From IMG/VR virus record IMGVR_UViG_3300028805_000098, positions 1-64,000 of that record: DNA of 64,000 nt; one strand, 5' to 3'. Shown here piece by piece: positions 11,090-60,495 of the stretch (position 1 is the first letter of the stretch; each line of letters opens with the position of its first letter). The DNA is from an uncultured virus (IMG/VR IMGVR_UViG_3300028805_000098). Its lineage: Duplodnaviria > Heunggongvirae > Uroviricota > Caudoviricetes. The notes beneath the pieces are model-generated. The model saw only the letters and a list, made by a program, of their open reading frames with translations, did no database searches and was not told where the DNA came from. Position numbers and translations under genes: made by a program.

Positions 11090-11365
11090 TTTGAAGTACC
11101 TTTCATGTACATATCGTTCCCGTGAGAAGGAGTAATTAACATGAAAGGTACTAACTTTACGCTATACTCACACAATAACGTGGGCTACAAATTCGGCGGT
11201 TTAAAACGAGTGAAATTTCACTCGTTCTTTTTTGCGAAAAAAAGCGCCATCAAAGGCGAAGAACTTGAACTTCGCCTTATCCGGTAATTCCATGTTACAT
11301 CATCAGGGGGATAATGTAACGACAAAATATCACATCGGATATTTTATCTTAATGTGACGATTTTA

Positions 11366-11477
11366 CAATCTGACATTACCCCCTCCCATAAGTATATATT
11401 ATCGTGGTGTATGAGAGTTTAGTAGGAGTTCTCTTGTACTAAATTGCGAAAACCTACGATCCACATCTTTAAGGAGG
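11366..11477 (+). promoter_or_regulatory. Conserved promoter-leader element, copy B
   Basis: caatctgacattacccc..ATATATTAT(11394-11402)cgtggtgtatgagagtttagtaggagttctcttgtactaaattgcgaaaacctacgatccacatctttaaggagg. Confidence 0.92.
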
Positions 11478-11486
11478 ATGTTTATC

Positions 11487-11726
11487 ATGACGTATGTCGA
11501 AGAAAACAAGGTCGGCGAAGCTGTCGCGCAGATGGCGCAAACCGACGAGGCGAAAGTTTTGGCGGTAGCAAAAGCAGTCTACCCTCACTGGGCAAACGCA
11601 ATGCTTCAACCAGTCCGCGTCCCCGGCGTGTACAAAGTCTTCGCAATCGGCACAGTTCACGACGTGACAATTATGGCGCGCATCGATCAAGATGGTGGCG
11701 TCTACGTCAAACACGTCGCCTGGTAA
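11487..11726 (+). CDS. Hypothetical cargo protein of cassette B (79 aa)
   Basis: ATG correctly spaced from AAGGAGG; followed by a double hairpin and T-run. Confidence 0.7.
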   Translation: MTYVEENKVGEAVAQMAQTDEAKVLAVAKAVYPHWANAMLQPVRVPGVYKVFAIGTVHDVTIMARIDQDGGVYVKHVAW

Positions 11727-11856
11727 GACAAACCAATTTAGCAACCTATATGGTTGCGACCGAACGCACAATAGCGCTCGGATTTTTTTATAACATTTAT
11801 ACACCACTTTGTTTTTTCTACCAGCAGACACTTTAAACTAAGAAAGGAGTGAGGAT

Positions 11857-24001: not shown

Positions 24002-24060
24002 GGTTTTTTCCTCCTTTGGTTTATTTTACACTAATGTTTTAACAAAAGAGGCGTCTGCGC

Positions 24061-48177: not shown

Positions 48178-49764
48178 TCATTCTTTGAATTTCGTCATTG
48201 AGTACAGCGTTTGAATCGTTTCATTTGTAGTTGTTCTCACGCTTTGACCAGCCATATTCAGAACATAAATTTTCGAATGCATTATACGTTCTGCTTCTTG
48301 ATTTGCTGACTGGCTAAAAACACCCTTAATTGAGACAGTATCACCGTCATAGTCACCATTCATCGCTTTCAAAAACACATTTTGGAATCTAAGAGTATCA
48401 ACGAATTGGGAAGCTATTTCATCCGGACTTAGACTCAAATCTATTACCGGATATTTCTTATACAACTTCCCATCAAGTTCAATCGGTATCGTTCTGAGTG
48501 TGCTGAGAACATTTATTCCTGTCGGAAACGTTCCCATCGTATCAGTCATTGGATAACGCGTGATATACACATGTTTATCTTCACACACATTTACCGCAGC
48601 TAAGAAGAATAAATCGGTCAATGTAAACGGACGATTGAATATTGGACTGGGTTCTCCTGTTTGCTCATATTTTTGACCCATAAACTTCAAATCGTAATGA
48701 ACTTTATCCATGTTAGTGTGCGGGATTTCGATAGTTTGAAATCTTCCGCTGAAAGAATAAATGAACGTTTCCATCATCTTACGAATCATTTCATCGTTGT
48801 AATACGACATTGGGTCTTTAAGTGGTTCAAAAGCGAGTTTGCCCTTATTCTCAATAGGATATTTCGTTCCGATAAACTCAAGTTCTCTTTGGAGAAAATT
48901 TCGAACCCATCCGAGGATAAATGGTGTAAATAACGAACAGCAGTTAGCCAACGGAACTCCTGCGTGGAAAAAGTCAACTTCGGTATCTTTATAAGAATTG
49001 GAATTGTAGTTAGGAGATGTAATAACCAATCTTGCACCATAATCAACATTTTTTCCAAGCAAAGATTTTCGAACCATTCCATTCTTCTTCTCAATCAAGT
49101 TCTTGAAATAGTCGTATATTTCGATTAGAGTCATTTGAATCATATAGCGTGTGTTATGCATTACCGGAGTAAACGAAGCATCTTGTTTTAGCATTGCAGT
49201 CAATCGAATCAATTTAGAATATATTCCGTTAACTGTATCCGCTCCAATCTTTCTGGTATCTATGTCTTGCATATTGATGTCTCGGTACATCGCAGGACAT
49301 ACTAACCACATATTGGTGAATACCTCGTTTTTCTTATGATTCTCCAACACATCGACACGATCGTTGTGTTCTGCAGATTCATTCTTCTTGTAATGGATTT
49401 TCTCCCAGTTCTTATAGAGAAAATCCATTCCTGTTTGACCTTTCTCGGGATCTTCAACCATAGTTCCGTCTTTCTGTATTACTACATTAATTCTCCCGGA
49501 ACAAATTCCATCAATCCGTCGGTCAAGTCTTCGGATATTCTTATAGATTATAGGTTGGAAATAATATCCACCTAATGAGATAAATCCAAATTTTCTGGAT
49601 CGTTCTTTGGTCGTGTTTCCAAATATTTCTGTCGAAAGCAATCCGTCATATGTGGGAGTCTTGTTTCTATCCAAGAATATCGGATTAGTGACTTCCTTAA
49701 TCATGGTCGGATTAATTTTTACGAATTTTTCAACGTCCATCAGATTCAGTTGCATAGTGTTCAC
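48178..49764 (-). CDS. rpoC: Split RNA polymerase beta-prime subunit, N-terminal/catalytic part
   Basis: GLLSTEIFG, FGFISL, RKSLLGKNVDYGARLVI, RYP, catalytic MNGDYDGD. Confidence 0.9.
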   Translation of the reverse strand: MNTMQLNLMDVEKFVKINPTMIKEVTNPIFLDRNKTPTYDGLLSTEIFGNTTKERSRKFGFISLGGYYFQPIIYKNIRRLDRRIDGICSGRINVVIQKDGTMVEDPEKGQTGMDFLYKNWEKIHYKKNESAEHNDRVDVLENHKKNEVFTNMWLVCPAMYRDINMQDIDTRKIGADTVNGIYSKLIRLTAMLKQDASFTPVMHNTRYMIQMTLIEIYDYFKNLIEKKNGMVRKSLLGKNVDYGARLVITSPNYNSNSYKDTEVDFFHAGVPLANCCSLFTPFILGWVRNFLQRELEFIGTKYPIENKGKLAFEPLKDPMSYYNDEMIRKMMETFIYSFSGRFQTIEIPHTNMDKVHYDLKFMGQKYEQTGEPSPIFNRPFTLTDLFFLAAVNVCEDKHVYITRYPMTDTMGTFPTGINVLSTLRTIPIELDGKLYKKYPVIDLSLSPDEIASQFVDTLRFQNVFLKAMNGDYDGDTVSIKGVFSQSANQEAERIMHSKIYVLNMAGQSVRTTTNETIQTLYSMTKFKE

Positions 49765-52399: not shown

Positions 52400-52508
52400 T
52401 CATCACCTCTACTTTCTTTTAAATACTGGTGAAGAATTTAGTTTTTAGTAGCGTCAGTTATTTATCAAAGCGACAGAATGCTAAAACAAACATTGGAGGT
52501 GAATTCAT

Positions 52509-53297
52509 ATGGATTACAAGAAATGCCCTGTATGTAAAGAAAAGATTGTGGGCTCTAAGGAAAACATGATAATTCACGTAGAGAAAGAGCATGATGATCT
52601 TATACCAGAAAACCAGAATCCGGGAGAATTCATTTATTTAAGAGAACACAATGGTGAACCTCGTAAATGTATGATATGTAAGAAGCCAACAGAGTGGAAT
52701 GTCAGAACCAATAAATACAATGCGTTCTGTAGTGATGCTTGCAAACAAGAGTATGTTAAAATTGCTAAGGCTCGAATGAAGAAAGTTTATGGTAAAGAAT
52801 GTATTCTTGACAATCCCGATGTACAGAAGAAGATGTTGGCGAATCGATCTATTAGTGGACGATACATGCATTCAGATGGTGGAGTGTTGACTTATACAGG
52901 AACCTTTGAGGAAGACTTCTGCAAAATGATGGATACGTTTCTGCAATTTCCGTCTACTGATATTATTATGCCATCTCCTCACGTTTATGAATACGAGTAT
53001 GAAGGTAAGAAACATTTTTACTTTCCGGATGTATTCATTCCATCGTTAATGCTCGAAGTTGAGATTAAGGATGGTGGAGATAATCCGAACATGCACCACA
53101 AAATTCAAGACGTTGATAAAGTCAAAGAAAAACTCAAAGATGAAGCATTGATGAAACAACGTGACTTTCACTATATCAAGATTGAGAACAAAGATTATGG
53201 TGCGTTCTTTGAACTAATTGAAAGACTTGCGAATGATGATTTGACCGAAAAAGAACAACGAGAGAAAATCAAAATTACACCGGAACAAAAAGCGTGA
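52509..53297 (+). CDS. Zn-finger plus PD-(D/E)xK nuclease (TnsA/T4 gp4-like)
   Basis: CPVC..H..H, CMIC..FCSDAC, YFPDVF...EVEIK. Confidence 0.65.
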   Translation: MDYKKCPVCKEKIVGSKENMIIHVEKEHDDLIPENQNPGEFIYLREHNGEPRKCMICKKPTEWNVRTNKYNAFCSDACKQEYVKIAKARMKKVYGKECILDNPDVQKKMLANRSISGRYMHSDGGVLTYTGTFEEDFCKMMDTFLQFPSTDIIMPSPHVYEYEYEGKKHFYFPDVFIPSLMLEVEIKDGGDNPNMHHKIQDVDKVKEKLKDEALMKQRDFHYIKIENKDYGAFFELIERLANDDLTEKEQREKIKITPEQKA

Positions 53298-53368
53298 CGA
53301 ACCCCGAGAATGGAATTGAATCCATCTCGGGGTTATTTGTTCGTTTTCGTTCGTTAGAACTATTTTAG

Positions 53369-53932
53369 TCACACACCAATTTTTTCCATTGAGTAGAGAG
53401 TTGCTTTTCCATTGAAGACATTGAACTCAATGATGAGAGCTTCCGGATCCGCGTCTGAAGAAATCATGCGGCGTTGAGCAACGACAACGTGATTGACGCC
53501 TTTGGTAACTTTCTTGCCCATGTAAAGAACGGGTGTAATACCGACGCCAGTGAGTTTTTCGCCTGCAGGTTCGATAATCGAGTCGAAGTATTCCTTGACT
53601 TTATCTTCGGGATCGGTTCCTTCGACAAGCTCGTCATCTTCGATAACCTCGACGACTTTCGCGCCTTCACCATCAAACGAACCAGCCGGAATGTTAACGA
53701 TAATACCGACGATTCTTTTGATTGTCTTCAAGGTAGTACTAACTGCCTCTGCGACCAGCAAATAGTTAGTACCATTCACAATCTGATCCGCAACGAGCCA
53801 AATCGGGGTAAATGTCGACCCAAACAAAATGGGCTTTGCCGAGGCGAGAGCCTGAGGAAGTGAAGTTGCAGGTTGGTTGATAATGTTCCAACCACCAAGT
53901 TTCCCACCAAGGGTGATACCACCAAATTTCAT
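53369..53932 (-). CDS. Protein with two cystatin-like repeats
   Basis: GGW, QIVNGTNY and second copy KVTKGVNH; late promoter at 53974-53985. Confidence 0.55.
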   Translation of the reverse strand: MKFGGITLGGKLGGWNIINQPATSLPQALASAKPILFGSTFTPIWLVADQIVNGTNYLLVAEAVSTTLKTIKRIVGIIVNIPAGSFDGEGAKVVEVIEDDELVEGTDPEDKVKEYFDSIIEPAGEKLTGVGITPVLYMGKKVTKGVNHVVVAQRRMISSDADPEALIIEFNVFNGKATLYSMEKIGV

Positions 53933-53991
53933 GATGTTTTGCCTCCTTATATGATTCATCATTAGAATCGGATTACCTTCTTGTTAAGAGA

Positions 53992-54096
53992 GGTTTAATT
54001 TCAATCCGACATCACCCCCACCCACATTTATATATTATATACGCGTAGAAGAGTTAAGTAGGCAGCTCACTACTAAGATGAAAAAACCTACGATCC
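53992..54096 (+). promoter_or_regulatory. Conserved promoter-leader element, copy C (variant family)
   Basis: caatccgacatcaccccc..ATATATTAT..gagttaagtagg..ctactaa..gaaaaaacctacgatcc. Confidence 0.9.
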
Positions 54097-54119
54097 TCGC
54101 CTCGTAAGGAGATGGTAGA

Positions 54120-54605
54120 GTGATTAAGTACAGCGACCTCGACGTGAGAGAAAGGGCGCTTCTTGACTCTCTCAAGGACAAGATGGTCAAGAAAGTGCTC
54201 CCATACGATCAACGTTATGCGAAAAACTGGGAGTTTTTCGAGACGGTCCATTCGGATTATCTCGATGATTTCCAAGCGCTCATCTCAGATGAGATGGACG
54301 TGAAGGCGTTCGTTTCGACGTATCATCTCGACTATTACAGCTCGTCGAAGCTCGACGAAATGTACGATGAGTACTACGAGATCTTTCCGCCGGAATCAGG
54401 CCATGATGACATCATCCGCCGCAACCAGATCACATTTATTGAGAACTGGGATTGGGACGATGAGATCAAGTTGCCCGATAAGTGGGACTGCGATGTCTAC
54501 GATGCGATTGTAGAAAGCGTCAAAGACAAAGCGGTATCAACGATCCGCGACGAAAATTGGGAACGTTTCCGCGAAACCGCCCGCAAAATGGGATGGTTCT
54601 TCTAA
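54120..54605 (+). CDS. Hypothetical acidic cargo protein of cassette C
   Basis: GTG start after AAGGAG; followed by a terminator. Confidence 0.75.
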   Translation: MIKYSDLDVRERALLDSLKDKMVKKVLPYDQRYAKNWEFFETVHSDYLDDFQALISDEMDVKAFVSTYHLDYYSSSKLDEMYDEYYEIFPPESGHDDIIRRNQITFIENWDWDDEIKLPDKWDCDVYDAIVESVKDKAVSTIRDENWERFRETARKMGWFF

Positions 54606-54678
54606 CTGGTCACGTCACGCTCACCGGTCACGCTCATTATACGGGCGTGATTTTTTTTTGTTTTCCAACCTCGCAATA

Positions 54679-54856
54679 CCCGAGAAGAAGTATGGGGTAA
54701 AGCAAAAGCATTTAGTAGAGAACCAAAGATTTATCTCCACTGGACTGCTGGTTGGTACGATAATGTTCCGACCACCAAGTGTAATACCACCAAATTTCAT
54801 GATGTTTGCCTCCTTATATGATTCATCATCGGAATCGAATTACCTTTTTTAAGAAG
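54679..54856. pseudogene. Chimeric duplication relic (amidase 5' fragment joined to the start region of the cystatin-like gene)
   Basis: 54679-54764 matches 55610-55695; 54760-54856 matches 53880-53991, with substitutions and deletions. Confidence 0.9.
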
Positions 54857-54961
54857 GGTTTAATTTCAATCCGACATCACCCCCACCCACATTTATATAT
54901 TATATACGCGTAGAAGAGTTAAGTAGGCAGCTCACTACTAAGATGAAAAAACCTACGATCC
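54857..54961 (+). promoter_or_regulatory. Conserved promoter-leader element, copy D
   Basis: Identical to 53992-54096 over 105 bp. Confidence 0.92.
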
Positions 54962-54979
54962 CTTAAGGAGGGATTTGGA

Positions 54980-55468
54980 ATGACCACAGACGATTTCGGA
55001 TACGAGCTGGGTCAAATACTCAACTTTCAATGCACTGAACCAGAGGATTTCGATGGTGAGTGCATCGGATCCCGGTGCCCGAACTTCCATGAGTGCCATA
55101 GTCATCCGCATTACTACATCAGCACGGCATATTACAAAAAGTATGCTGTTGTGAGCGATGATTGGCACGAGGTTGGCATCTTTGATGTTGACATCGTAAC
55201 ACCGAAACAGGCGGCCGAAATAATTTGCAATGGAGCAACGAATCCTACCCGGATCGAACGCGCCAACCGCATCAGTGTCGGAAGCCAATGGTTCAAAACG
55301 CTCGATGATGAAATAGAATGCGAGTATGTCGACATCAACGGTATTCGCTACTATTTTGACGATCAGTATTGCTTCGGCGGCTACATCAACTGGGCTCGCG
55401 CCATAATCAAGGAAAACAATCTTTCGTTTGAAGATGTCGTTTATCTCAATGAACTCTTGGAGCAATAA
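54980..55468 (+). CDS. Hypothetical cargo protein of cassette D (Cys/His cluster)
   Basis: RBS AAGGAGG; C..C..C..CHSHPH; followed by a terminator. Confidence 0.75.
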   Translation: MTTDDFGYELGQILNFQCTEPEDFDGECIGSRCPNFHECHSHPHYYISTAYYKKYAVVSDDWHEVGIFDVDIVTPKQAAEIICNGATNPTRIERANRISVGSQWFKTLDDEIECEYVDINGIRYYFDDQYCFGGYINWARAIIKENNLSFEDVVYLNELLEQ

Positions 55469-55563
55469 CGCTCCGCTGCGGTCTCGCTCATATGGGCGAG
55501 ATTTTTTTTTCATTTCTAACCTCTTAATATTCAAGACAATCTCATAAAGGTAGGTGAACGAAA

Positions 55564-56166
55564 ATGCGTGAAGTTACACTTAAAGAAATCTATCAACTCG
55601 CTTCTGCTGCCCGAGAAGAAGTTTGGGATAAAGCAAAAGCACTTGGTAGAGAACCAAAGATTTATCTCCACTGGACTGCTGGTTGGTACGATAATAAGTC
55701 TGACGACTACCATATCAATATCGATAAGAATGGCAAATATTATGCCAGTACAGATAATTTTGCTGATGTTATCGCCGGAACATACAAACGTAACAGTGGA
55801 GCTATCAACATCACAATATGTTGTGCGGTATATGCGGATACCAAAGACTTAGGTCCGAATCCTCCAACCGCTGCACAGATTGAAAGTATGGCTTTGGCTG
55901 TTTGTGCAGTAGCTGAAGGATTATGGCTCACAATCAATCCAGGTCATGTAATGACACATGGAGAAGCTGCAGATAATGAAGATGGTTTGTGGTGTCATGA
56001 ACAATATGGACCGAAATCAACTTGTGAACGCTGGGATTTGGAATATCTTGAAACTTCAGAATCCCCAAAGTTTAATCCTCATGCAATAGACGGTTCTCGC
56101 GGTGGAGACGTTCTCAGAGGAAAAGCTCTTTGGTATCTCCCAGAATTCAGAAAGAATTACAAATAA
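55564..56166 (+). CDS. N-acetylmuramoyl-L-alanine amidase (Amidase_2-like endolysin)
   Basis: IYLHWTAG, YHINID, PTAAQIESM, MTHGE; late promoter at 55535-55546. Confidence 0.8.
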   Translation: MREVTLKEIYQLASAAREEVWDKAKALGREPKIYLHWTAGWYDNKSDDYHINIDKNGKYYASTDNFADVIAGTYKRNSGAINITICCAVYADTKDLGPNPPTAAQIESMALAVCAVAEGLWLTINPGHVMTHGEAADNEDGLWCHEQYGPKSTCERWDLEYLETSESPKFNPHAIDGSRGGDVLRGKALWYLPEFRKNYK

Positions 56167-56238
56167 ACTCAAAATGAGGAAGAGATTCGAATCTCTTCCT
56201 CAACTTACCCTTAAACTAATTCAAAGGAGGTAACGCTT

Positions 56239-58524
56239 ATGAATCTTGAACGCGTTATCAAACGCGACGGTTCGTTGGTTTCATACGACCGATCGAAAAT
56301 TTACAAAGCGATTGTTGGAGCTAACAACGCTTCCGTCGAACAAATGACCGAACGCGATCTTGAGAATATCATTGAACAGATAGAGTCCGATATTGGTGAT
56401 CGTACTGAAATATCAGTCGAAGATATTCAAGATGTCGTGGAACGTCGTCTTATGCAACACGGATTTTTCGAGATAGCCAAGAAGTATATTTGTTACAGAT
56501 ATAAACATATGCTTCGTCGGGAATCGAAGAAGAATCTCATGCAAACTTATAAAGACATTTTGTTTACTGATGCCTCAGCGATGGACGATAAGAGGGAAAA
56601 TGCAAATATTAACACTGATGGTCCAATGGGCATAATGCTTAAACTTGGATCAGATGGAGCAAAAGAATTCGCGCTTAATACCCAACCAAAAGAATTTGCT
56701 GAAGCACATCGTCAACATTTCATTCATGAACACGATAACGATTTCTCAATGATAACGTTGAATTGTTGTCAAATTGATCTACTGAAACTGTTTCACGGTG
56801 GGTTTTCAACAGGTCATGGTCATATAAGAGAACCAGGCTCTATTCGATCATATGCAGCTTTAGCATGTGTGGCAATTCAATCAGACCAGAACGACTGTTT
56901 CGGAGGCCAGTCACTAAATGCAGAAGATTATGCGATGGCTGAAGGGATCAGAAAAACATTCGTGAAAGAAATTATATCTAAAACGGTTGAATTTGGACAA
57001 TTTGTGACATCGAACATGTACGACAAGCACACGGTTAGTAAAGAAGTCAAAGAAGAATTCGATAGAACAAAGATACATTACGTCGAAGATAAAGACATTA
57101 AGAATTCTAGTGATTATTGGGAAACCATAGAAGAAATATGGAGAGTTTTCTGTAAAGTTTTCATGGAAGTCGAGCGAAACGAATGGGATGGTCTTCATTC
57201 AATTTATGAAATAGCAAAAGATGCCACTGAAGAAGAGACACGTCAAGCTATGGAAGCAATGGTGTATAATTTTAATAGCTTACACGCTAGGTCAGGCGGG
57301 CAAGTTCCGTTCAGTTCTATCAACTTTGGTATGGATACTTCTCCAGAGGGACGATTGGCAATAAGAGAAACTCTCAACGCTATTGATGCTGGAATGGGAA
57401 AGGGAGAATCTCCACTATTTCCAATTTCGATTTTTCAGATTAAATCAGGAATCAATTTCAACCCAGGCGATCCAAATTACGACTTATTTAAGCGTGCATG
57501 TGAAGTGAGTGCTAAGAGGTTGTACCCGAACTTTGTATCGTGTGATGCCACTTTTAACTTGAAGTATTATAAACCAGGAAATTATAATACATACGCTGCA
57601 ACGATGGGATGCCGTACCCGTGTTATCGGAAATGTGAATGGACCTGAAGAAACTGGTGGAAGAGGAAATTTTAGTTTTGTGACTCTTAATCTTCCAAAAT
57701 TTGCACTCGAAGCAAAACGTCAACTTGGAAACAACGCACCACAAGAAGAGATCATAAAACGTTTCTACGAGATATACGATCACTATATTCAACTTAGTCA
57801 CGATTATCTTCTTTACCGTTTTCAAATTATTGCAGATAAACACGTTTTCAATTTTCCGTTTTTGATGGGTCAAGGCGTTTGGATGGGAAGCGATGAATTA
57901 TCGCCAAATGATACTATACGAAAAGTTTTGAAAAATGCTACCCTTTCTATTGGATTCTGTGGTCTTGCAGAAACTTTAATAGCATTAACAGGAAAACATC
58001 ATGGAGAGAATGAGGATTCGCAACGGTTCGGATTGGAAATCGTCCAACATCTTCGTGACAAAACCGACAAGTTTAAAGTTGAAGAAAAAATGAATTGGTC
58101 AACCTTTTCAACTCCAGCCGAAGGGACAGCAAATACATTTCAAAAAGCGAATCGCAAAGATTATGGAATCATACGTGGTGTCACCGATAGATTGTACATC
58201 ACGAACAGTTTCCATGTTCCTGTGTATTATAAGATACGAGCTATCGATAAAATTCGTATCGAAGCACCATACCATGAAAAATGTGATGCTGGCGCGATAA
58301 GCTATATTGAGTACAATGGGGATCCTCTCCAAAATGTAGAAGCTTTTGAAAAACTTGTACGAGCCATGCACGATGCAAATATGGGATATTTCAGTGTGAA
58401 CCACCCTGTCGACCGCGACCCGGTCTGTGGTTATACCGGTATTATAAAAAACGAATGCCCACACTGCAAACGCAAAGAACACGAATCGTGGCATCACAAA
58501 ACCGTACCGATGATTTCAATCTGA
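56239..58524 (+). CDS. nrdD: Anaerobic (class III) ribonucleotide reductase with ATP cone, lacking the C-terminal glycyl-radical motif
   Basis: VIKRDG ATP cone, NCCQID, GGQ, ATMGCRT, GRGNFSF, TPAEG, YITNSFH, PVCG..CPHC. Confidence 0.9.
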   Translation: MNLERVIKRDGSLVSYDRSKIYKAIVGANNASVEQMTERDLENIIEQIESDIGDRTEISVEDIQDVVERRLMQHGFFEIAKKYICYRYKHMLRRESKKNLMQTYKDILFTDASAMDDKRENANINTDGPMGIMLKLGSDGAKEFALNTQPKEFAEAHRQHFIHEHDNDFSMITLNCCQIDLLKLFHGGFSTGHGHIREPGSIRSYAALACVAIQSDQNDCFGGQSLNAEDYAMAEGIRKTFVKEIISKTVEFGQFVTSNMYDKHTVSKEVKEEFDRTKIHYVEDKDIKNSSDYWETIEEIWRVFCKVFMEVERNEWDGLHSIYEIAKDATEEETRQAMEAMVYNFNSLHARSGGQVPFSSINFGMDTSPEGRLAIRETLNAIDAGMGKGESPLFPISIFQIKSGINFNPGDPNYDLFKRACEVSAKRLYPNFVSCDATFNLKYYKPGNYNTYAATMGCRTRVIGNVNGPEETGGRGNFSFVTLNLPKFALEAKRQLGNNAPQEEIIKRFYEIYDHYIQLSHDYLLYRFQIIADKHVFNFPFLMGQGVWMGSDELSPNDTIRKVLKNATLSIGFCGLAETLIALTGKHHGENEDSQRFGLEIVQHLRDKTDKFKVEEKMNWSTFSTPAEGTANTFQKANRKDYGIIRGVTDRLYITNSFHVPVYYKIRAIDKIRIEAPYHEKCDAGAISYIEYNGDPLQNVEAFEKLVRAMHDANMGYFSVNHPVDRDPVCGYTGIIKNECPHCKRKEHESWHHKTVPMISI

Positions 58525-58581
58525 CAAACTACAAAAAGCGTGACAAAGCCAGAACCTACAAGGTTCTGGCTTATTGTCCGC

Positions 58582-58730
58582 AAAAAAAACGACTCCCAGG
58601 AAGATAGGCCTAGCCGCCAATTCTGTTACGCGGCGACTTCGAGGCGGGTTAATCCGAAGTCTACTATATAAGCCGAGTACAACTTAGGCGTTTGTCACCA
58701 ATAACCTATCTTCCCTTAAAGTGGAGCTAT
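58582..58730 (-). ncRNA. Candidate structured non-coding RNA (multi-stem junction)
   Basis: Closing stem 58599-58608 / 58705-58714 encloses three hairpins; U8 run at the 3' end; promoter-like motif at 58760-58771. Confidence 0.5.
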
Positions 58731-58788
58731 TGCCCGCACATTAGTATTATAGATGCATCTAATGATATGTTGACACGATATAATTTTT

Positions 58789-58901
58789 CAATCTGACATC
58801 GCCCACCCTCCTAAGTATATATTATCGTGGTGTATGAGAGTTTAGTAGGAGTTCTCTTGTACTAAATTGACGAAAACCTACGATCCACATCTTTAAGGAG
58901 G
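58789..58901 (+). promoter_or_regulatory. Conserved promoter-leader element, copy E
   Basis: Near-identical to copy B from taagtatatattat through aaggaggatgttt. Confidence 0.92.
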
Positions 58902-58910
58902 ATGTTTGAA

Positions 58911-59477
58911 ATGAAAAACGCTCTGGTAAATTCGATCGTCTCCGTTATTAACGTCATTTGGGGTCTCACAGGAGGGGCAATTCTGTTCGGCGCGATGTAC
59001 GTTATCGCGTACTTCAAAGTCAAAAACGGAACTGCGTCGTTGTACACCGATGTGAGATACGCGGATACTGGAAAGAAATTGACCATATGGTCATTCTTGA
59101 AAAGGTTCGCCGTCCAGATGGAAGCAGTCCCGTTAGTAACAGATCAGGGGCTGGTTGCTTGCGTTCACGGAGGATTCGCAGAATTCATTATCGAAGGCAA
59201 GAAAGAAAATCATTTCTCGATGGCGAACAAATTCGACAAGGGAGAGTACACACTCATCTCTTGTTGTAATGGTAGCCATCAAGACTTCCATTTCAACGGG
59301 CGCAGTTTCAAACGCGACAAAAACACTATCAGTTTATATGAAACAATACTACTTCCATATAACAATGGAAAGCTTGTGTGTTGGGCTGACAAGACAATAC
59401 GTCTTTACACCTGCGCGCAATCGGTGCAGTATTGGAAATATATTCCGAAGGTTATCTGCGCAAAAGGCTGGAAATGA
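58911..59477 (+). CDS. Hypothetical membrane-anchored cargo protein of cassette E
   Basis: N-terminal hydrophobic segment; ATG spaced from the RBS. Confidence 0.72.
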   Translation: MKNALVNSIVSVINVIWGLTGGAILFGAMYVIAYFKVKNGTASLYTDVRYADTGKKLTIWSFLKRFAVQMEAVPLVTDQGLVACVHGGFAEFIIEGKKENHFSMANKFDKGEYTLISCCNGSHQDFHFNGRSFKRDKNTISLYETILLPYNNGKLVCWADKTIRLYTCAQSVQYWKYIPKVICAKGWK

Positions 59478-59634
59478 TTCACGAAAGAATCTGTGTCGTA
59501 AATCGGCACAGACACCGCACACATTTGCGGCACAGATTCTTTTTCCCTCAAGGAGATATTTTTTACCTCCCACAACAAGAAGCGTGACAAAGCCAGAACC
59601 TTAATAGGTTCTGGCTTTTTCTCCTTTTTACGTT

Positions 59635-59742
59635 CCGACATTACCCTCTCCCATAAGTATATATTATCGTGGTGTATAGGAGTTTAGTAGGAGTTCTCTT
59701 GTACTAAATTGCGAAAACCTACGATCCACATCTTTAAGGAGG
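59635..59742 (+). promoter_or_regulatory. Conserved promoter-leader element, copy F
   Basis: Near-identical to copies B and E. Confidence 0.92.
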
Positions 59743-59751
59743 ATGTTTGAA

Positions 59752-60399
59752 ATGAGCATTTACGTCAATGGTGTGAAATCAGATGATTTGAACGACGAGG
59801 AGAGAAAGGCGTTCGAAAACGCTAAGGCGCTCAAATCACGTCATGTTCCGAGAGGAACTGACGGAGTGGTCTGGGCGCACGGCCTCAACGCTGTCAACAG
59901 ATCGCAGTCGCCTGCGGTCGCACTCGAAAAACTGTTGACCATTCTTGGCACCGGAGCCGAGATAAGTTGCTCGAAACCCGGGCCTGAATCTAGGCTCATG
60001 AACGGAGGACTCGGCGTAATAGGCGTTTATGTGAAAGGCGAAACGTCGTTAATGGCCTCCGTTGATTGCGGGAGCTACACGATTGATGGGAAGCGTTACC
60101 CATCAATTCGTGAGGAGTTCATCGTTGACGACTATGAAAAACTCGACGACGAATACAGCGCCTACACCGAGGCGTTTGTCGCTCCGCAAAAAATCGTGGG
60201 GTTCTGGATTTCGAAAAAGGCGTACGAAAACTACGTCACGAATTTCGAATCCGGAGAAGCGGAAAAAGTTTACAAGAAACGCTACGGCGAAAATTGGAAA
60301 GTCTTCTTTCGGTTTGAGTATCTCAAACCAAGAGAAGGTTTCATCAGCTGTTTCAACATGTTGAAAGACATGGGTATTCCTATGACTTTCGCATATTGA
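59752..60399 (+). CDS. Hypothetical cargo protein of cassette F
   Basis: ATG spaced from AAGGAGG; followed by a CCACGC/GCGTGG-T9 terminator. Confidence 0.75.
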   Translation: MSIYVNGVKSDDLNDEERKAFENAKALKSRHVPRGTDGVVWAHGLNAVNRSQSPAVALEKLLTILGTGAEISCSKPGPESRLMNGGLGVIGVYVKGETSLMASVDCGSYTIDGKRYPSIREEFIVDDYEKLDDEYSAYTEAFVAPQKIVGFWISKKAYENYVTNFESGEAEKVYKKRYGENWKVFFRFEYLKPREGFISCFNMLKDMGIPMTFAY

Positions 60400-60495
60400 A
60401 ACAATTCAGCCACGCAAAACCGCGTGGTTTTTTTTTCTCCGAATTTCACCTATTTTTACCCCTCGCGACAAAGCACTAAAAAGAGGTGATAAACG

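Follow-up and report, generated by a model that had tools for sequence, protein, structure and literature searches.

An early-gene slot duplicated in tandem and carrying two unrelated genes in an uncultured AR9/PBS1-like jumbo phage

Introduction

How can two adjacent gene slots in a phage genome possess the same leader, letter for letter, and homologous terminators, with coding parts that show no detectable identity? The question is raised by positions 53871-55695 of a 64,000-nucleotide (nt) stretch of DNA from an uncultured virus (positions 1 to 64,000 of IMG/VR record IMGVR_UViG_3300028805_000098); "the window" below means this whole stretch. The window is part of a 74.6-kb viral fragment (CheckV completeness 30%) with PHROG matches to a major head protein, a tail sheath, a terminase and a GroEL-like chaperonin. 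At 48178-49764 it encodes a beta-type subunit of RNA polymerase (phrog_2986, E = 4.8e-96), the only subunit examined, whose best isolate matches by tblastn are Bacillus phage BpSp, Listeria phage LPJP1, Bacillus phage Goe21 and Staphylococcus jumbo phages at ~36% amino acid identity. The runs containing the DNA are labelled sheep-gut metagenomes. From the PHROG matches and the polymerase matches, the source is an uncultured AR9/PBS1-like jumbo phage from the sheep gut that encodes its own multisubunit RNA polymerase.

For T4-type phages, exchange of genes via the conserved ends of PeSL cassettes has been proposed, including a route by circle excision and re-insertion (Arbiol et al. 2010, PMC2839356; Comeau et al. 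2014, PMC4122927). In this work we found that the jumbo phage locus is a segmental tandem duplication of one slot together with pieces of both neighbouring genes. We consider it likely that the slot was duplicated by unequal recombination and that its cargos were exchanged through the conserved cassette ends in a PeSL-like manner.

Tandem duplication of the slot

The duplicated slot lies between a leftward gene and a rightward endolysin-like gene. The elements of the locus are given below, with open reading frame abbreviated as ORF, untranslated region as UTR and amino acids as aa.

53369-53932, minus strand: leftward gene, 187 aa, GC 0.456; the junction derives in part from its intact 5' end.
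53974-53985, minus strand: predicted late promoter of the leftward gene, AACAAGAAGGTA, of the AR9 type AACA-(6N)-TA; predicted start 53974.
53992-54096, plus strand: module A, with an upstream element, predicted early promoter TATATATTAT at 54029-54038, predicted start G 54045 and a leader ending in CCTACGATCC.
54120-54605, plus strand: cargo 1, 161 aa, acidic (isoelectric point 4.5), predicted all-alpha, ORFan, GC 0.484 versus 0.397 for the genome.
54626-54659, plus strand: predicted intrinsic terminator A, 10-pair stem followed by nine T, fold z-score -2.44.
54679-54764, plus strand: fragment of the endolysin-like gene, codons 16-44, without ribosome site, start codon and first 15 codons.
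54765-54856, minus strand: fragment of the leftward gene that retains the 5' UTR and the first ~10 codons; 12 nt deleted between CCACCAAG repeats; late promoter destroyed.
54857-54961, plus strand: module B, identical to module A; TATATATTAT lies at 54894-54903 and the predicted start is G 54910.
54980-55468, plus strand: cargo 2, 162 aa, acidic, Cys/His-rich in its N-terminal part, ORFan.
55480-55510, plus strand: predicted intrinsic terminator B, 10-pair stem, homologous to A with one compensatory pair change, fold z-score -3.59.
55564-56166, plus strand: endolysin-like gene, intact, the right parent of the junction; phrog_5867 (endolysin), E = 2.8e-33.

A repeat search and pairwise alignments of the region place unit A at 53871-54678 and unit B at 54750-55535. 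Besides the terminator regions, which are listed further below, the repeat search recovered 53981-54096 versus 54846-54961 (116 nt, 97%), 54679-54764 versus 55610-55695 (86 nt, 82 of 86 positions identical, in the endolysin-like codons), and 53879-53982 versus 54759-54849 (three blocks of 84-94%). Aligned piece by piece, the two units and their junction compare as follows.

53871-53932 versus 54751-54800: 5' coding end of the leftward gene; 46 matches, 3 mismatches and the 12-nt deletion.
53933-53991 versus 54801-54856: 5' UTR of the leftward gene; 51 matches, 5 mismatches and 3 gap columns.
53992-54096 versus 54857-54961: leader; 105 of 105 identical.
54639-54685 versus 55490-55536: terminator and next bases; 79% identical, the compensatory stem pair changing from A-T to T-A.
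53871-53884: left parental microhomology, GGTTGGTTGATAAT.
54750-54764: duplication junction, microhomology GGTTGGTACGATAAT in the endolysin-gene version; leftward-gene sequence from 54765 onward.
55681-55695: right parental microhomology site, within the intact endolysin-like gene.

At the junction, an imperfect microhomology (14 of 15 nt) links endolysin-like codons 16-44 with the leftward gene's 5' end. This order is as expected if the segment duplicated in tandem had one end within the leftward gene and the other within the endolysin-like gene. The spacer between terminator A and the next promoter is a chimera of 197 nt. The similarity of the two units stops directly after CCTACGATCC, and between this point and the terminators the units give no alignment. 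The proteins encoded there are equally dissimilar: cargo 1 and cargo 2 show no similarity to each other, with a best BLASTP E of 0.40 and an hhalign probability of 0.2%.

These results bear out all the sequence features that a first, sequence-only reading of the DNA had described, and part of its interpretation. It had called the locus a tandem duplication of the whole unit at a microhomology, with 54679-54856 as a chimera of the 5' region of the endolysin-like gene ("amidase" in its wording) and the start of the leftward gene, and both fragments do align to their parents. Its statements that the leaders are identical for 105 bp and diverge right after CCTACGATCC, that similarity resumes at the terminators (both called by a terminator scan), and that the 161-aa and 162-aa ORFs are unrelated agree with the alignments above, and the self-comparison that it had proposed as a check returned the repeats as described.

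The leader stands out from the rest of the repeat. A 29-nt leader word occurs twice in the window where 0.00 occurrences are expected, and the leaders differ at none of 105 positions, whereas the flanks carry 12 substitutions in 191 aligned positions and 4 indels (Fisher p = 0.0099), that is, a flank identity of 93.7% between the units with substitutions at 6.3% of positions.

The promoter/leader module family

The leader is part of a module of ~125 nt that we found in 11 copies, seven in the window's record and four in the companion records G001 and G002. For counts across records we used two assemblies, together 199 kb: gx (92.9 kb), in which the window's record is extended with record G003, and M (106.5 kb), the merged overlapping records G001 and G002. 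The two have no common genes beyond the cassettes (of 88 ORFs from the window's phage, the only one with a homologue in M is spurious and overlaps a leader cassette), and so they are probably different parts of one genome of ~250 kb.

Each module consists of an upstream element of ~35 nt (consensus about ATTTTnCAATCTGACATyrCCCnCnCC), a core and a conserved transcribed leader of ~52 nt. All 11 copies terminate in AAACCTACGATCC and then continue into five unrelated ribosome-site/ORF sequences. The earlier reading had taken CCTACGATCC as the breakpoint of the duplication; similarity does stop there, but the position is not private to this event, being the family-wide 3' edge of the 11-copy module. 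There are two module subtypes, ~72% alike, and type 2 is made up of the two copies at this locus plus a tandem pair in M. The remaining family members in this genome diverge by up to ~35%.

The core TATATATTAT occurs 10 times in the window versus 0.21 expected and at 33 sites in the 199 kb versus ~2.5 expected from composition. A G follows after 6 nt at 30 of the 33 sites, and a Shine-Dalgarno-like sequence and a start codon lie within 130 nt of every one; the extended module is found at 11 of these 33 predicted early promoters only. The early-promoter consensus of phage AR9, read by the virion RNA polymerase, is given as AAATATATATTAT-(6N)-G(+1), its late consensus is AACA-(6N)-TA, and a predicted, unexplained motif is mentioned for its early 5' UTRs (Lavysh et al. 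2017, PMC5312081); according to a review, an AT-rich early motif of ~10 nt centred near -10 is present in every RNA polymerase-encoding jumbo phage (Sokolova et al. 2020, PMC7598289). By comparison with this consensus, 54029-54045 and 54894-54910 are predicted early promoters with starts at G 54045 and G 54910, and their early transcription would be carried out by the virion polymerase. A sigma-70 reading of the module (CTGACA-N17-TATATA) was dropped: it is not called by a sigma-70 scan, and the match to the AR9 consensus is far better.

The late motif behaves in a similar manner. In the 92.9 kb of gx, 7 of 37 AACA-N6-TA sites lie 10-60 nt upstream of a correctly oriented ORF versus 0.83 expected, and the seven include those before the sheath, major head, protease and leftward genes. 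Taken together, the late motifs and the TATATATTAT-(6N)-G sites amount to a usable promoter map for an uncultured phage. The late motif also stands 12-42 nt ahead of the genes for sheath, major head protein and protease, and of other ORFs (for example at 24027, 32522, 35192 and 35239).

The complete identity of leaders A and B coincides almost exactly with the module, and other family members differ as stated above; for these reasons we tentatively favour gene conversion between the adjacent copies rather than purifying selection by itself. The earlier reading had offered selection or homogenisation; the leaders do exceed the flanks in identity, and selection and gene conversion are not separable from this excess. 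The minimum-free-energy folds of the leader differ between the two subtypes, and no antisense copy of the leader motif was found elsewhere in the 199 kb. Two further candidates were set aside: a conserved upstream ORF in the leader, since its ATG/TTG frame is closed by TGA in copies with a one-base insertion, and AACCTC as a common promoter word, since most of its occurrences are coding or are reverse complements of ribosome sites.

Cassettes at other loci and in relatives

The pattern of conserved ends and unrelated middle is not confined to the duplicated slot. The cassettes at 11462 (79-aa cargo) and 3706 (214 aa) have unrelated cargos, with a common leader family and terminator family, and so repeat the same pattern. 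The whole cassette at 11353-11789, consisting of module, 79-aa ORF and terminator, recurs in M (L028:1-391, record G002) over 441 nt at 95% identity; it is sharply bounded by the module's 5' end and the terminator's T run, and the flanks on either side are unrelated. At 58528-60440, behind nrdD, is a second tandem pair; its leaders end at 58886 and 59727, and its cargos (191 and 218 aa) are unrelated. The hairpin of the nrdD terminator (58528-58579) has a second copy, 87% identical, at 59572-59624, so that here too a slot seems to have been gained along with a duplicated terminator. The terminator is fused to the next module at 59.6 kb and at 3.8 kb.

Leader-driven cargos are richer in GC than the genome (0.397): 0.47-0.55 for the 8 of 11 with a correctly placed start and 0.44-0.48, calculated by ORF, for the other three. 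Of the 11 cassette cargos, five were scanned against PHROGs and four against Pfam, without a match.

Relatives of the locus came from protein and metagenome searches. One of them encodes P0003, a protein of 89 aa on a 549-nt contig, which comprises codons 1-34 of cargo 1 and, beyond an internal deletion, an out-of-frame 3' end of cargo 1 and then terminator A. After this terminator the contig runs through an intact endolysin-like 5' UTR up to the ATG, and therefore in that relative a cargo 1 cassette abuts a complete endolysin gene without the chimeric spacer. A second protein, P0002, begins with MKKPTIRFERT, which corresponds to the translated leader end plus the version of the ribosome site found in M; thus a relative whose cargo is only 56% identical retains the 3' motif of the leader. 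In relatives of 90-95% identity from runs X5 and X7, contigs pass from CCTACGATCC into other ribosome-site/ORF starts, and one of them enters the ribosome site and first bases of cargo 2 before diverging. As evidence of varied cargo these continuations are only suggestive, as they may derive from other leader loci. The comparison with relatives that the first reading had called for, with a single cassette or other cargos expected, thus returned one case of cargo 1 beside an intact endolysin 5' region, on a 549-nt contig, together with 30-nt contig ends.

Contigs from X5, X7 and the RNA run X3 cover both flanking genes and neither the cargos nor the junction; they were not used for the latter, and missing contig cover is uninformative. 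An X7 contig that joins 54099 to 54651, skipping 551 nt, was rejected because one side has only 28 nt, and the X3 contigs on the leftward and endolysin-like genes were not taken as a sign of transcription, because DNA may be present in that library.

Wider searches gave little. A distant-mode blastn search of 52400-56400 against isolate phages returned no match; in IMG/VR the endolysin-like and leftward proteins found the same phage plus one weak match of 33%, and the leader patterns found only G003, G001 and G002. Among Joint Genome Institute metagenomes 10 of 11 leader-pattern matches were the same records and the eleventh (L042) was a GC-rich chance match. Three nrdD relatives (48-66% identity) have no other gene of the locus in common, and 12 of 13 query proteins gave no tblastn match.

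Some observations were made in passing around these loci. Between the nrdD terminator and the next early promoter, 58580-58780 is a non-coding, relatively GC-rich stretch of ~200 nt that folds with a 10-bp long-range helix (GGAAGAUAGG/CCUAUCUUCC) enclosing a multi-branch structure (z-score -2.07; no Rfam match). In a 204-kb relative (L037:8001-11301) the nrdD match is split into four pieces over 3.3 kb, which suggests introns, inteins or insertions. In record G002, L031:2001-4043 contains three group I introns (Rfam, 96-101 bits), and an HNH-type endonuclease ORF, read by eye, lies within ~1 kb upstream of the other type-2 leader pair.

Origin of the two slots

The course of events that we propose would start from an early-gene slot between the late leftward gene and the rightward endolysin-like gene, made up of the ~125-nt module, a small GC-richer ORFan and a strong intrinsic terminator. 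An unequal, microhomology-mediated crossover (GGTTGGT.GATAAT) between the 5' ends of the endolysin and leftward genes would have copied this slot together with stubs of both neighbours. The conserved cassette ends would then act as portable homology, so that the middle could be swapped by recombination with a co-infecting relative or with another copy elsewhere in the genome; the cargos would differ because these ends supply the homology for exchange. Recombination as the swapping mechanism is what we infer from the arrangement of the cassettes. The stubs would have lost their expression signals via small slippage deletions, and the two promoter/leader modules would have stayed identical or become identical again. 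The first reading had one cargo replaced after duplication by recombination at the conserved ends, and its order of events is one of at least two, as a single crossover of two cargo variants fits equally well. Given the general model, the single crossover comes near an even chance, duplication followed by replacement falls short of one, and re-insertion of an excised circle appears unlikely.

In the single crossover, co-infecting variants with different cargos would yield in one unequal event the order leftward gene, cargo 1, endolysin stub, leftward stub, cargo 2, endolysin. The cargo behind the leader varies among relatives, the terminators and flanks of the two units have diverged like orthologues of two lineages, and the alleles in the stubs match alleles circulating in X5/X7; one event would suffice, presumably with no unstable intermediate. 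The leaders, however, should then differ as the flanks do, and their complete identity calls for a later conversion; nor was a single-slot relative with cargo 2 seen. As an account of the whole locus we regard this path as tentative.

Doubtful by a similar measure is the path in two steps, by which a cargo 1 cassette and its flanks were duplicated and the downstream cargo with its terminator was later replaced via the leader and the terminator or sequence beyond. The relative with cargo 1 directly upstream of an intact endolysin 5' region would fit a cargo 1 ancestor, and the identity of the leaders is also as expected. In the endolysin fragment the last 51 nt beside the junction equal the functional gene, and all four mismatches lie in the first 36 nt, which is the pattern left by a crossover near 55646. 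On the other hand, the intermediate would carry perfect direct repeats of ~880 bp, which should collapse fast in a recombination-proficient phage, and two events are needed where one suffices.

The stubs bear on both paths. At the equivalents of 55623, 53915 and 53937 they hold the alleles of the functional genes of the X5/X7 relatives, so some of the flank differences originated in the functional copies or entered them by import. This counts to a degree against the two-step path, in which the divergence would be stub decay after the duplication, although both paths allow such matches. The earlier statement that the duplicated DNA outside the cassettes had decayed holds for the lost signals, as the late promoter AACAAGAAGGTA is destroyed in the copy and ~74 nt of the endolysin 5' end are gone; as an explanation of all flank differences it does not hold, given these three sites.

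A dedicated capture system is very unlikely by comparison. In such a system CCTACGATCC, or the whole module, would be a recombination or cleavage site at which an enzyme joins cassettes in an integron-like or homing-like fashion. All 11 modules end at the same nucleotide before five unrelated sequences, one cassette is sharp-edged in two contexts, and homing-type endonuclease genes are found within ~1 kb of both type-2 loci (phrog_15137 at 52509-53297, and the HNH-like ORF read by eye). But the stubs of both flanking genes and the microhomology junction mark illegitimate recombination, no integrase or recombinase was found among the 53 window ORFs scanned against PHROGs (the search was not dedicated to it), and a sharp boundary is also expected where a selected element ends before a few unconstrained bases and a ribosome site. 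The broader idea that the invariant 3' end AAACCTACGATCC is a dedicated functional site, either a DNA capture/exchange site of the integron kind or an RNA operator of a "pre-early" regulon of GC-rich foreign genes, is prompted by the fact that all 11 copies are joined at the same nucleotide to unrelated sequences, at least five in number, and by the retention of the motif in the relative with the 56% identical cargo; we think it a distinctly minor prospect.

Several points weigh against duplication and exchange through conserved ends as we propose it. The evidence for a single slot, or another cargo, at this locus consists of the 89-aa protein on its 549-nt contig and of 30-nt loose ends that possibly belong to other leader loci, and the single-slot cargo 2 relative is missing. 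Where transcription starts, that it is early and that the terminators function are all predicted. No fold of the leader is supported by covariation: from the 11 sequences RNAalifold returns just an invariant 5-bp GUAGG/CCUAC helix. The leader also has no Rfam match, the only match with E < 1 being a chance microRNA model. Its identity at 105 of 105 positions is unexplained next to flanks with 6.3% substitutions and 4 indels and terminators at 79%. That the companion records belong to one genome is deduced from the common promoter motif and the near-absence of ORF homologues. Lastly, the weak structure models of the cargos described below would still accommodate a very remote paralogy.

Cargo genes

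If the two cargos were highly diverged paralogues, the region would be a plain old tandem duplication. Their lengths are nearly equal and both are acidic, and in the weak AlphaFold2 models remote homology is formally open (cargo 1, all-alpha, pLDDT 60.6; cargo 2, mixed beta/alpha, pLDDT 43.6). Thus, of the profile and structure comparison that the first reading had proposed, the profile part finds no relationship and the models are too weak for a structural verdict. The sequence comparisons reported above speak against paralogy, and so does the predicted secondary structure, which is all-alpha in one and mixed beta/alpha in the other. Each cargo is 43-56% identical to its own relative and not detectably so to the other cargo, and a uniform molecular clock cannot yield leaders that are 100% identical with coding parts that lack detectable identity. 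Paralogy is accordingly extremely improbable.

The relatives of cargo 1 are P0002 (56% identity) and the fragment P0003 only; for cargo 2 a word search found none and an exhaustive HMMER search found P0005 (43%, E = 1.2e-26). Neither cargo has a match in Pfam, PHROGs, NCBIfam or, by tblastn, isolate phages; the ESM Atlas gave no usable match for them, and Foldseek with the cargo 1 model against PDB gave a best E of 5. Since the cargos are small, predicted early and compositionally foreign ORFans, they may be accessory proteins of the early phase, with roles perhaps in host take-over or counter-defence. Residues 65-92 of cargo 2 weakly match eight repeated stretches of the 951-aa protein P0006 (E = 2.2e-5), which may point to a common small repeat or domain.

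Assembly support

The duplication does not depend on one assembly. A second public record, G003 (81 kb), is 100% identical across 12,600 nt including the whole duplication. Logan unitigs of run X1 cover the region without gaps, and a 152-nt unitig of depth 11.9 crosses the junction at 54735-54886. Unitig depth is 22.6 in the shared 105-nt leader and 21.7 in a shared 50-nt endolysin segment, versus 8.9-11.9 in the unique parts. X1 may be the source sample, in which case the assembler is different and the reads are not independent. An assembler that collapsed or mis-joined the repeats into a chimeric spacer is barely credible: the repeats of 105 nt and 50-86 nt do exceed typical k-mers and the best DNA run may not be independent, but the same structure is present in the second record, the unitig spans the junction at single-copy depth with repeat unitigs at double, and the stubs have substitutions and indels of their own that a mis-join would not produce.

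Comparison with known systems

The modules resemble PeSLs in being repeated intergenic elements of ~100 nt with a strong early promoter and an associated terminator, in preceding ORFans, in that differences from relatives map to the module, and in that they would provide homology for inserting, deleting or replacing single genes that bring a promoter and terminator with them; nrdD also figures among the neighbours of both. They differ in several respects. The host of the element is an AR9/PBS1-like phage and not a member of the T4 superfamily; the promoter is of the virion polymerase type, TATATATTAT-(6N)-G, whereas that of PeSLs is sigma-70-like; the ~52-nt transcribed leader and ~35-nt upstream element are absent from PeSLs; the terminator closes the cassette at its distal end and is fused to the following promoter only in some cases; and the event described here is an illegitimate segmental duplication with gene stubs, not a PeSL-to-PeSL exchange. 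The system works like a PeSL and is not a member in the strict sense.

With AR9 and other polymerase-encoding jumbo phages the locus has in common the core followed by 6 nt and a G, the late motif before structural genes, and long 5' UTRs. The AAA that precedes the core in AR9, however, is conserved at only 3 of 33 sites, the extended module is restricted to a third of the promoters, and the polymerase is remote from those of isolates.

Morons of temperate phages are autonomous promoter-gene-terminator units. The slot is like them a single gene of foreign composition with its own promoter and terminator, placed between genes that are adjacent in a relative; it differs in belonging to a virulent-type jumbo phage, in using the phage's own early promoter and in having ends that form a repeated family in one genome. 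Integrons likewise join unrelated ORFs at a fixed point behind a common promoter region and form tandem arrays, but here every cassette has its own promoter and the junction is a microhomology between two coding sequences. We found no integrase among the 53 window ORFs compared with PHROGs and no attC-like inverted repeat flanking the cargos, in searches that were not exhaustive.

A literature search, not designed to prove absence, returned no description of such cassettes in AR9-like phages. The chimeric junction can be regarded as a dated fossil of slot creation, in which a microhomology crossover would have copied a socket able to take a second, unrelated gene, and the locus extends PeSL-type logic from the host-type promoters of T4-type phages to an AR9-like jumbo phage with an injected polymerase. 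The 11 small, predicted early, GC-richer ORFans are candidates for host take-over or counter-defence in a rumen/gut phage. The general principle is already known and the gain is incremental; this is a clear but fairly ordinary case of accessory-gene shuffling.

Flanking genes and further features

The leftward gene has no match in Pfam, PHROG or NCBIfam, and none in isolate phages by tblastn. Searches of Pfam, NCBIfam and PDB sequences with the endolysin-like protein were also without a match. For the "amidase" label given to it by the first reading, the only family match is the PHROG endolysin one, and no amidase family or PDB entry matched.

In the leftward stub the 12-nt slippage deletion took out four codons. 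The ~74 nt missing from the endolysin stub, which contained the ribosome site, start codon and first 15 codons, were deleted between short similar words. The two fragments together create one new reading frame.

54621-54800, minus strand: chimeric ORF of 59 aa, beginning with the leftward gene's ribosome site and first 10 codons, then the antisense of the endolysin fragment and of terminator A.

This ORF is probably silent, because the late promoter is destroyed. On its other side, the leftward gene is adjoined by a free-standing endonuclease gene (52509-53297, plus strand; phrog_15137, E = 7.4e-51). Its product has weak homing/HNH endonuclease matches, and the gene could add to local recombination.

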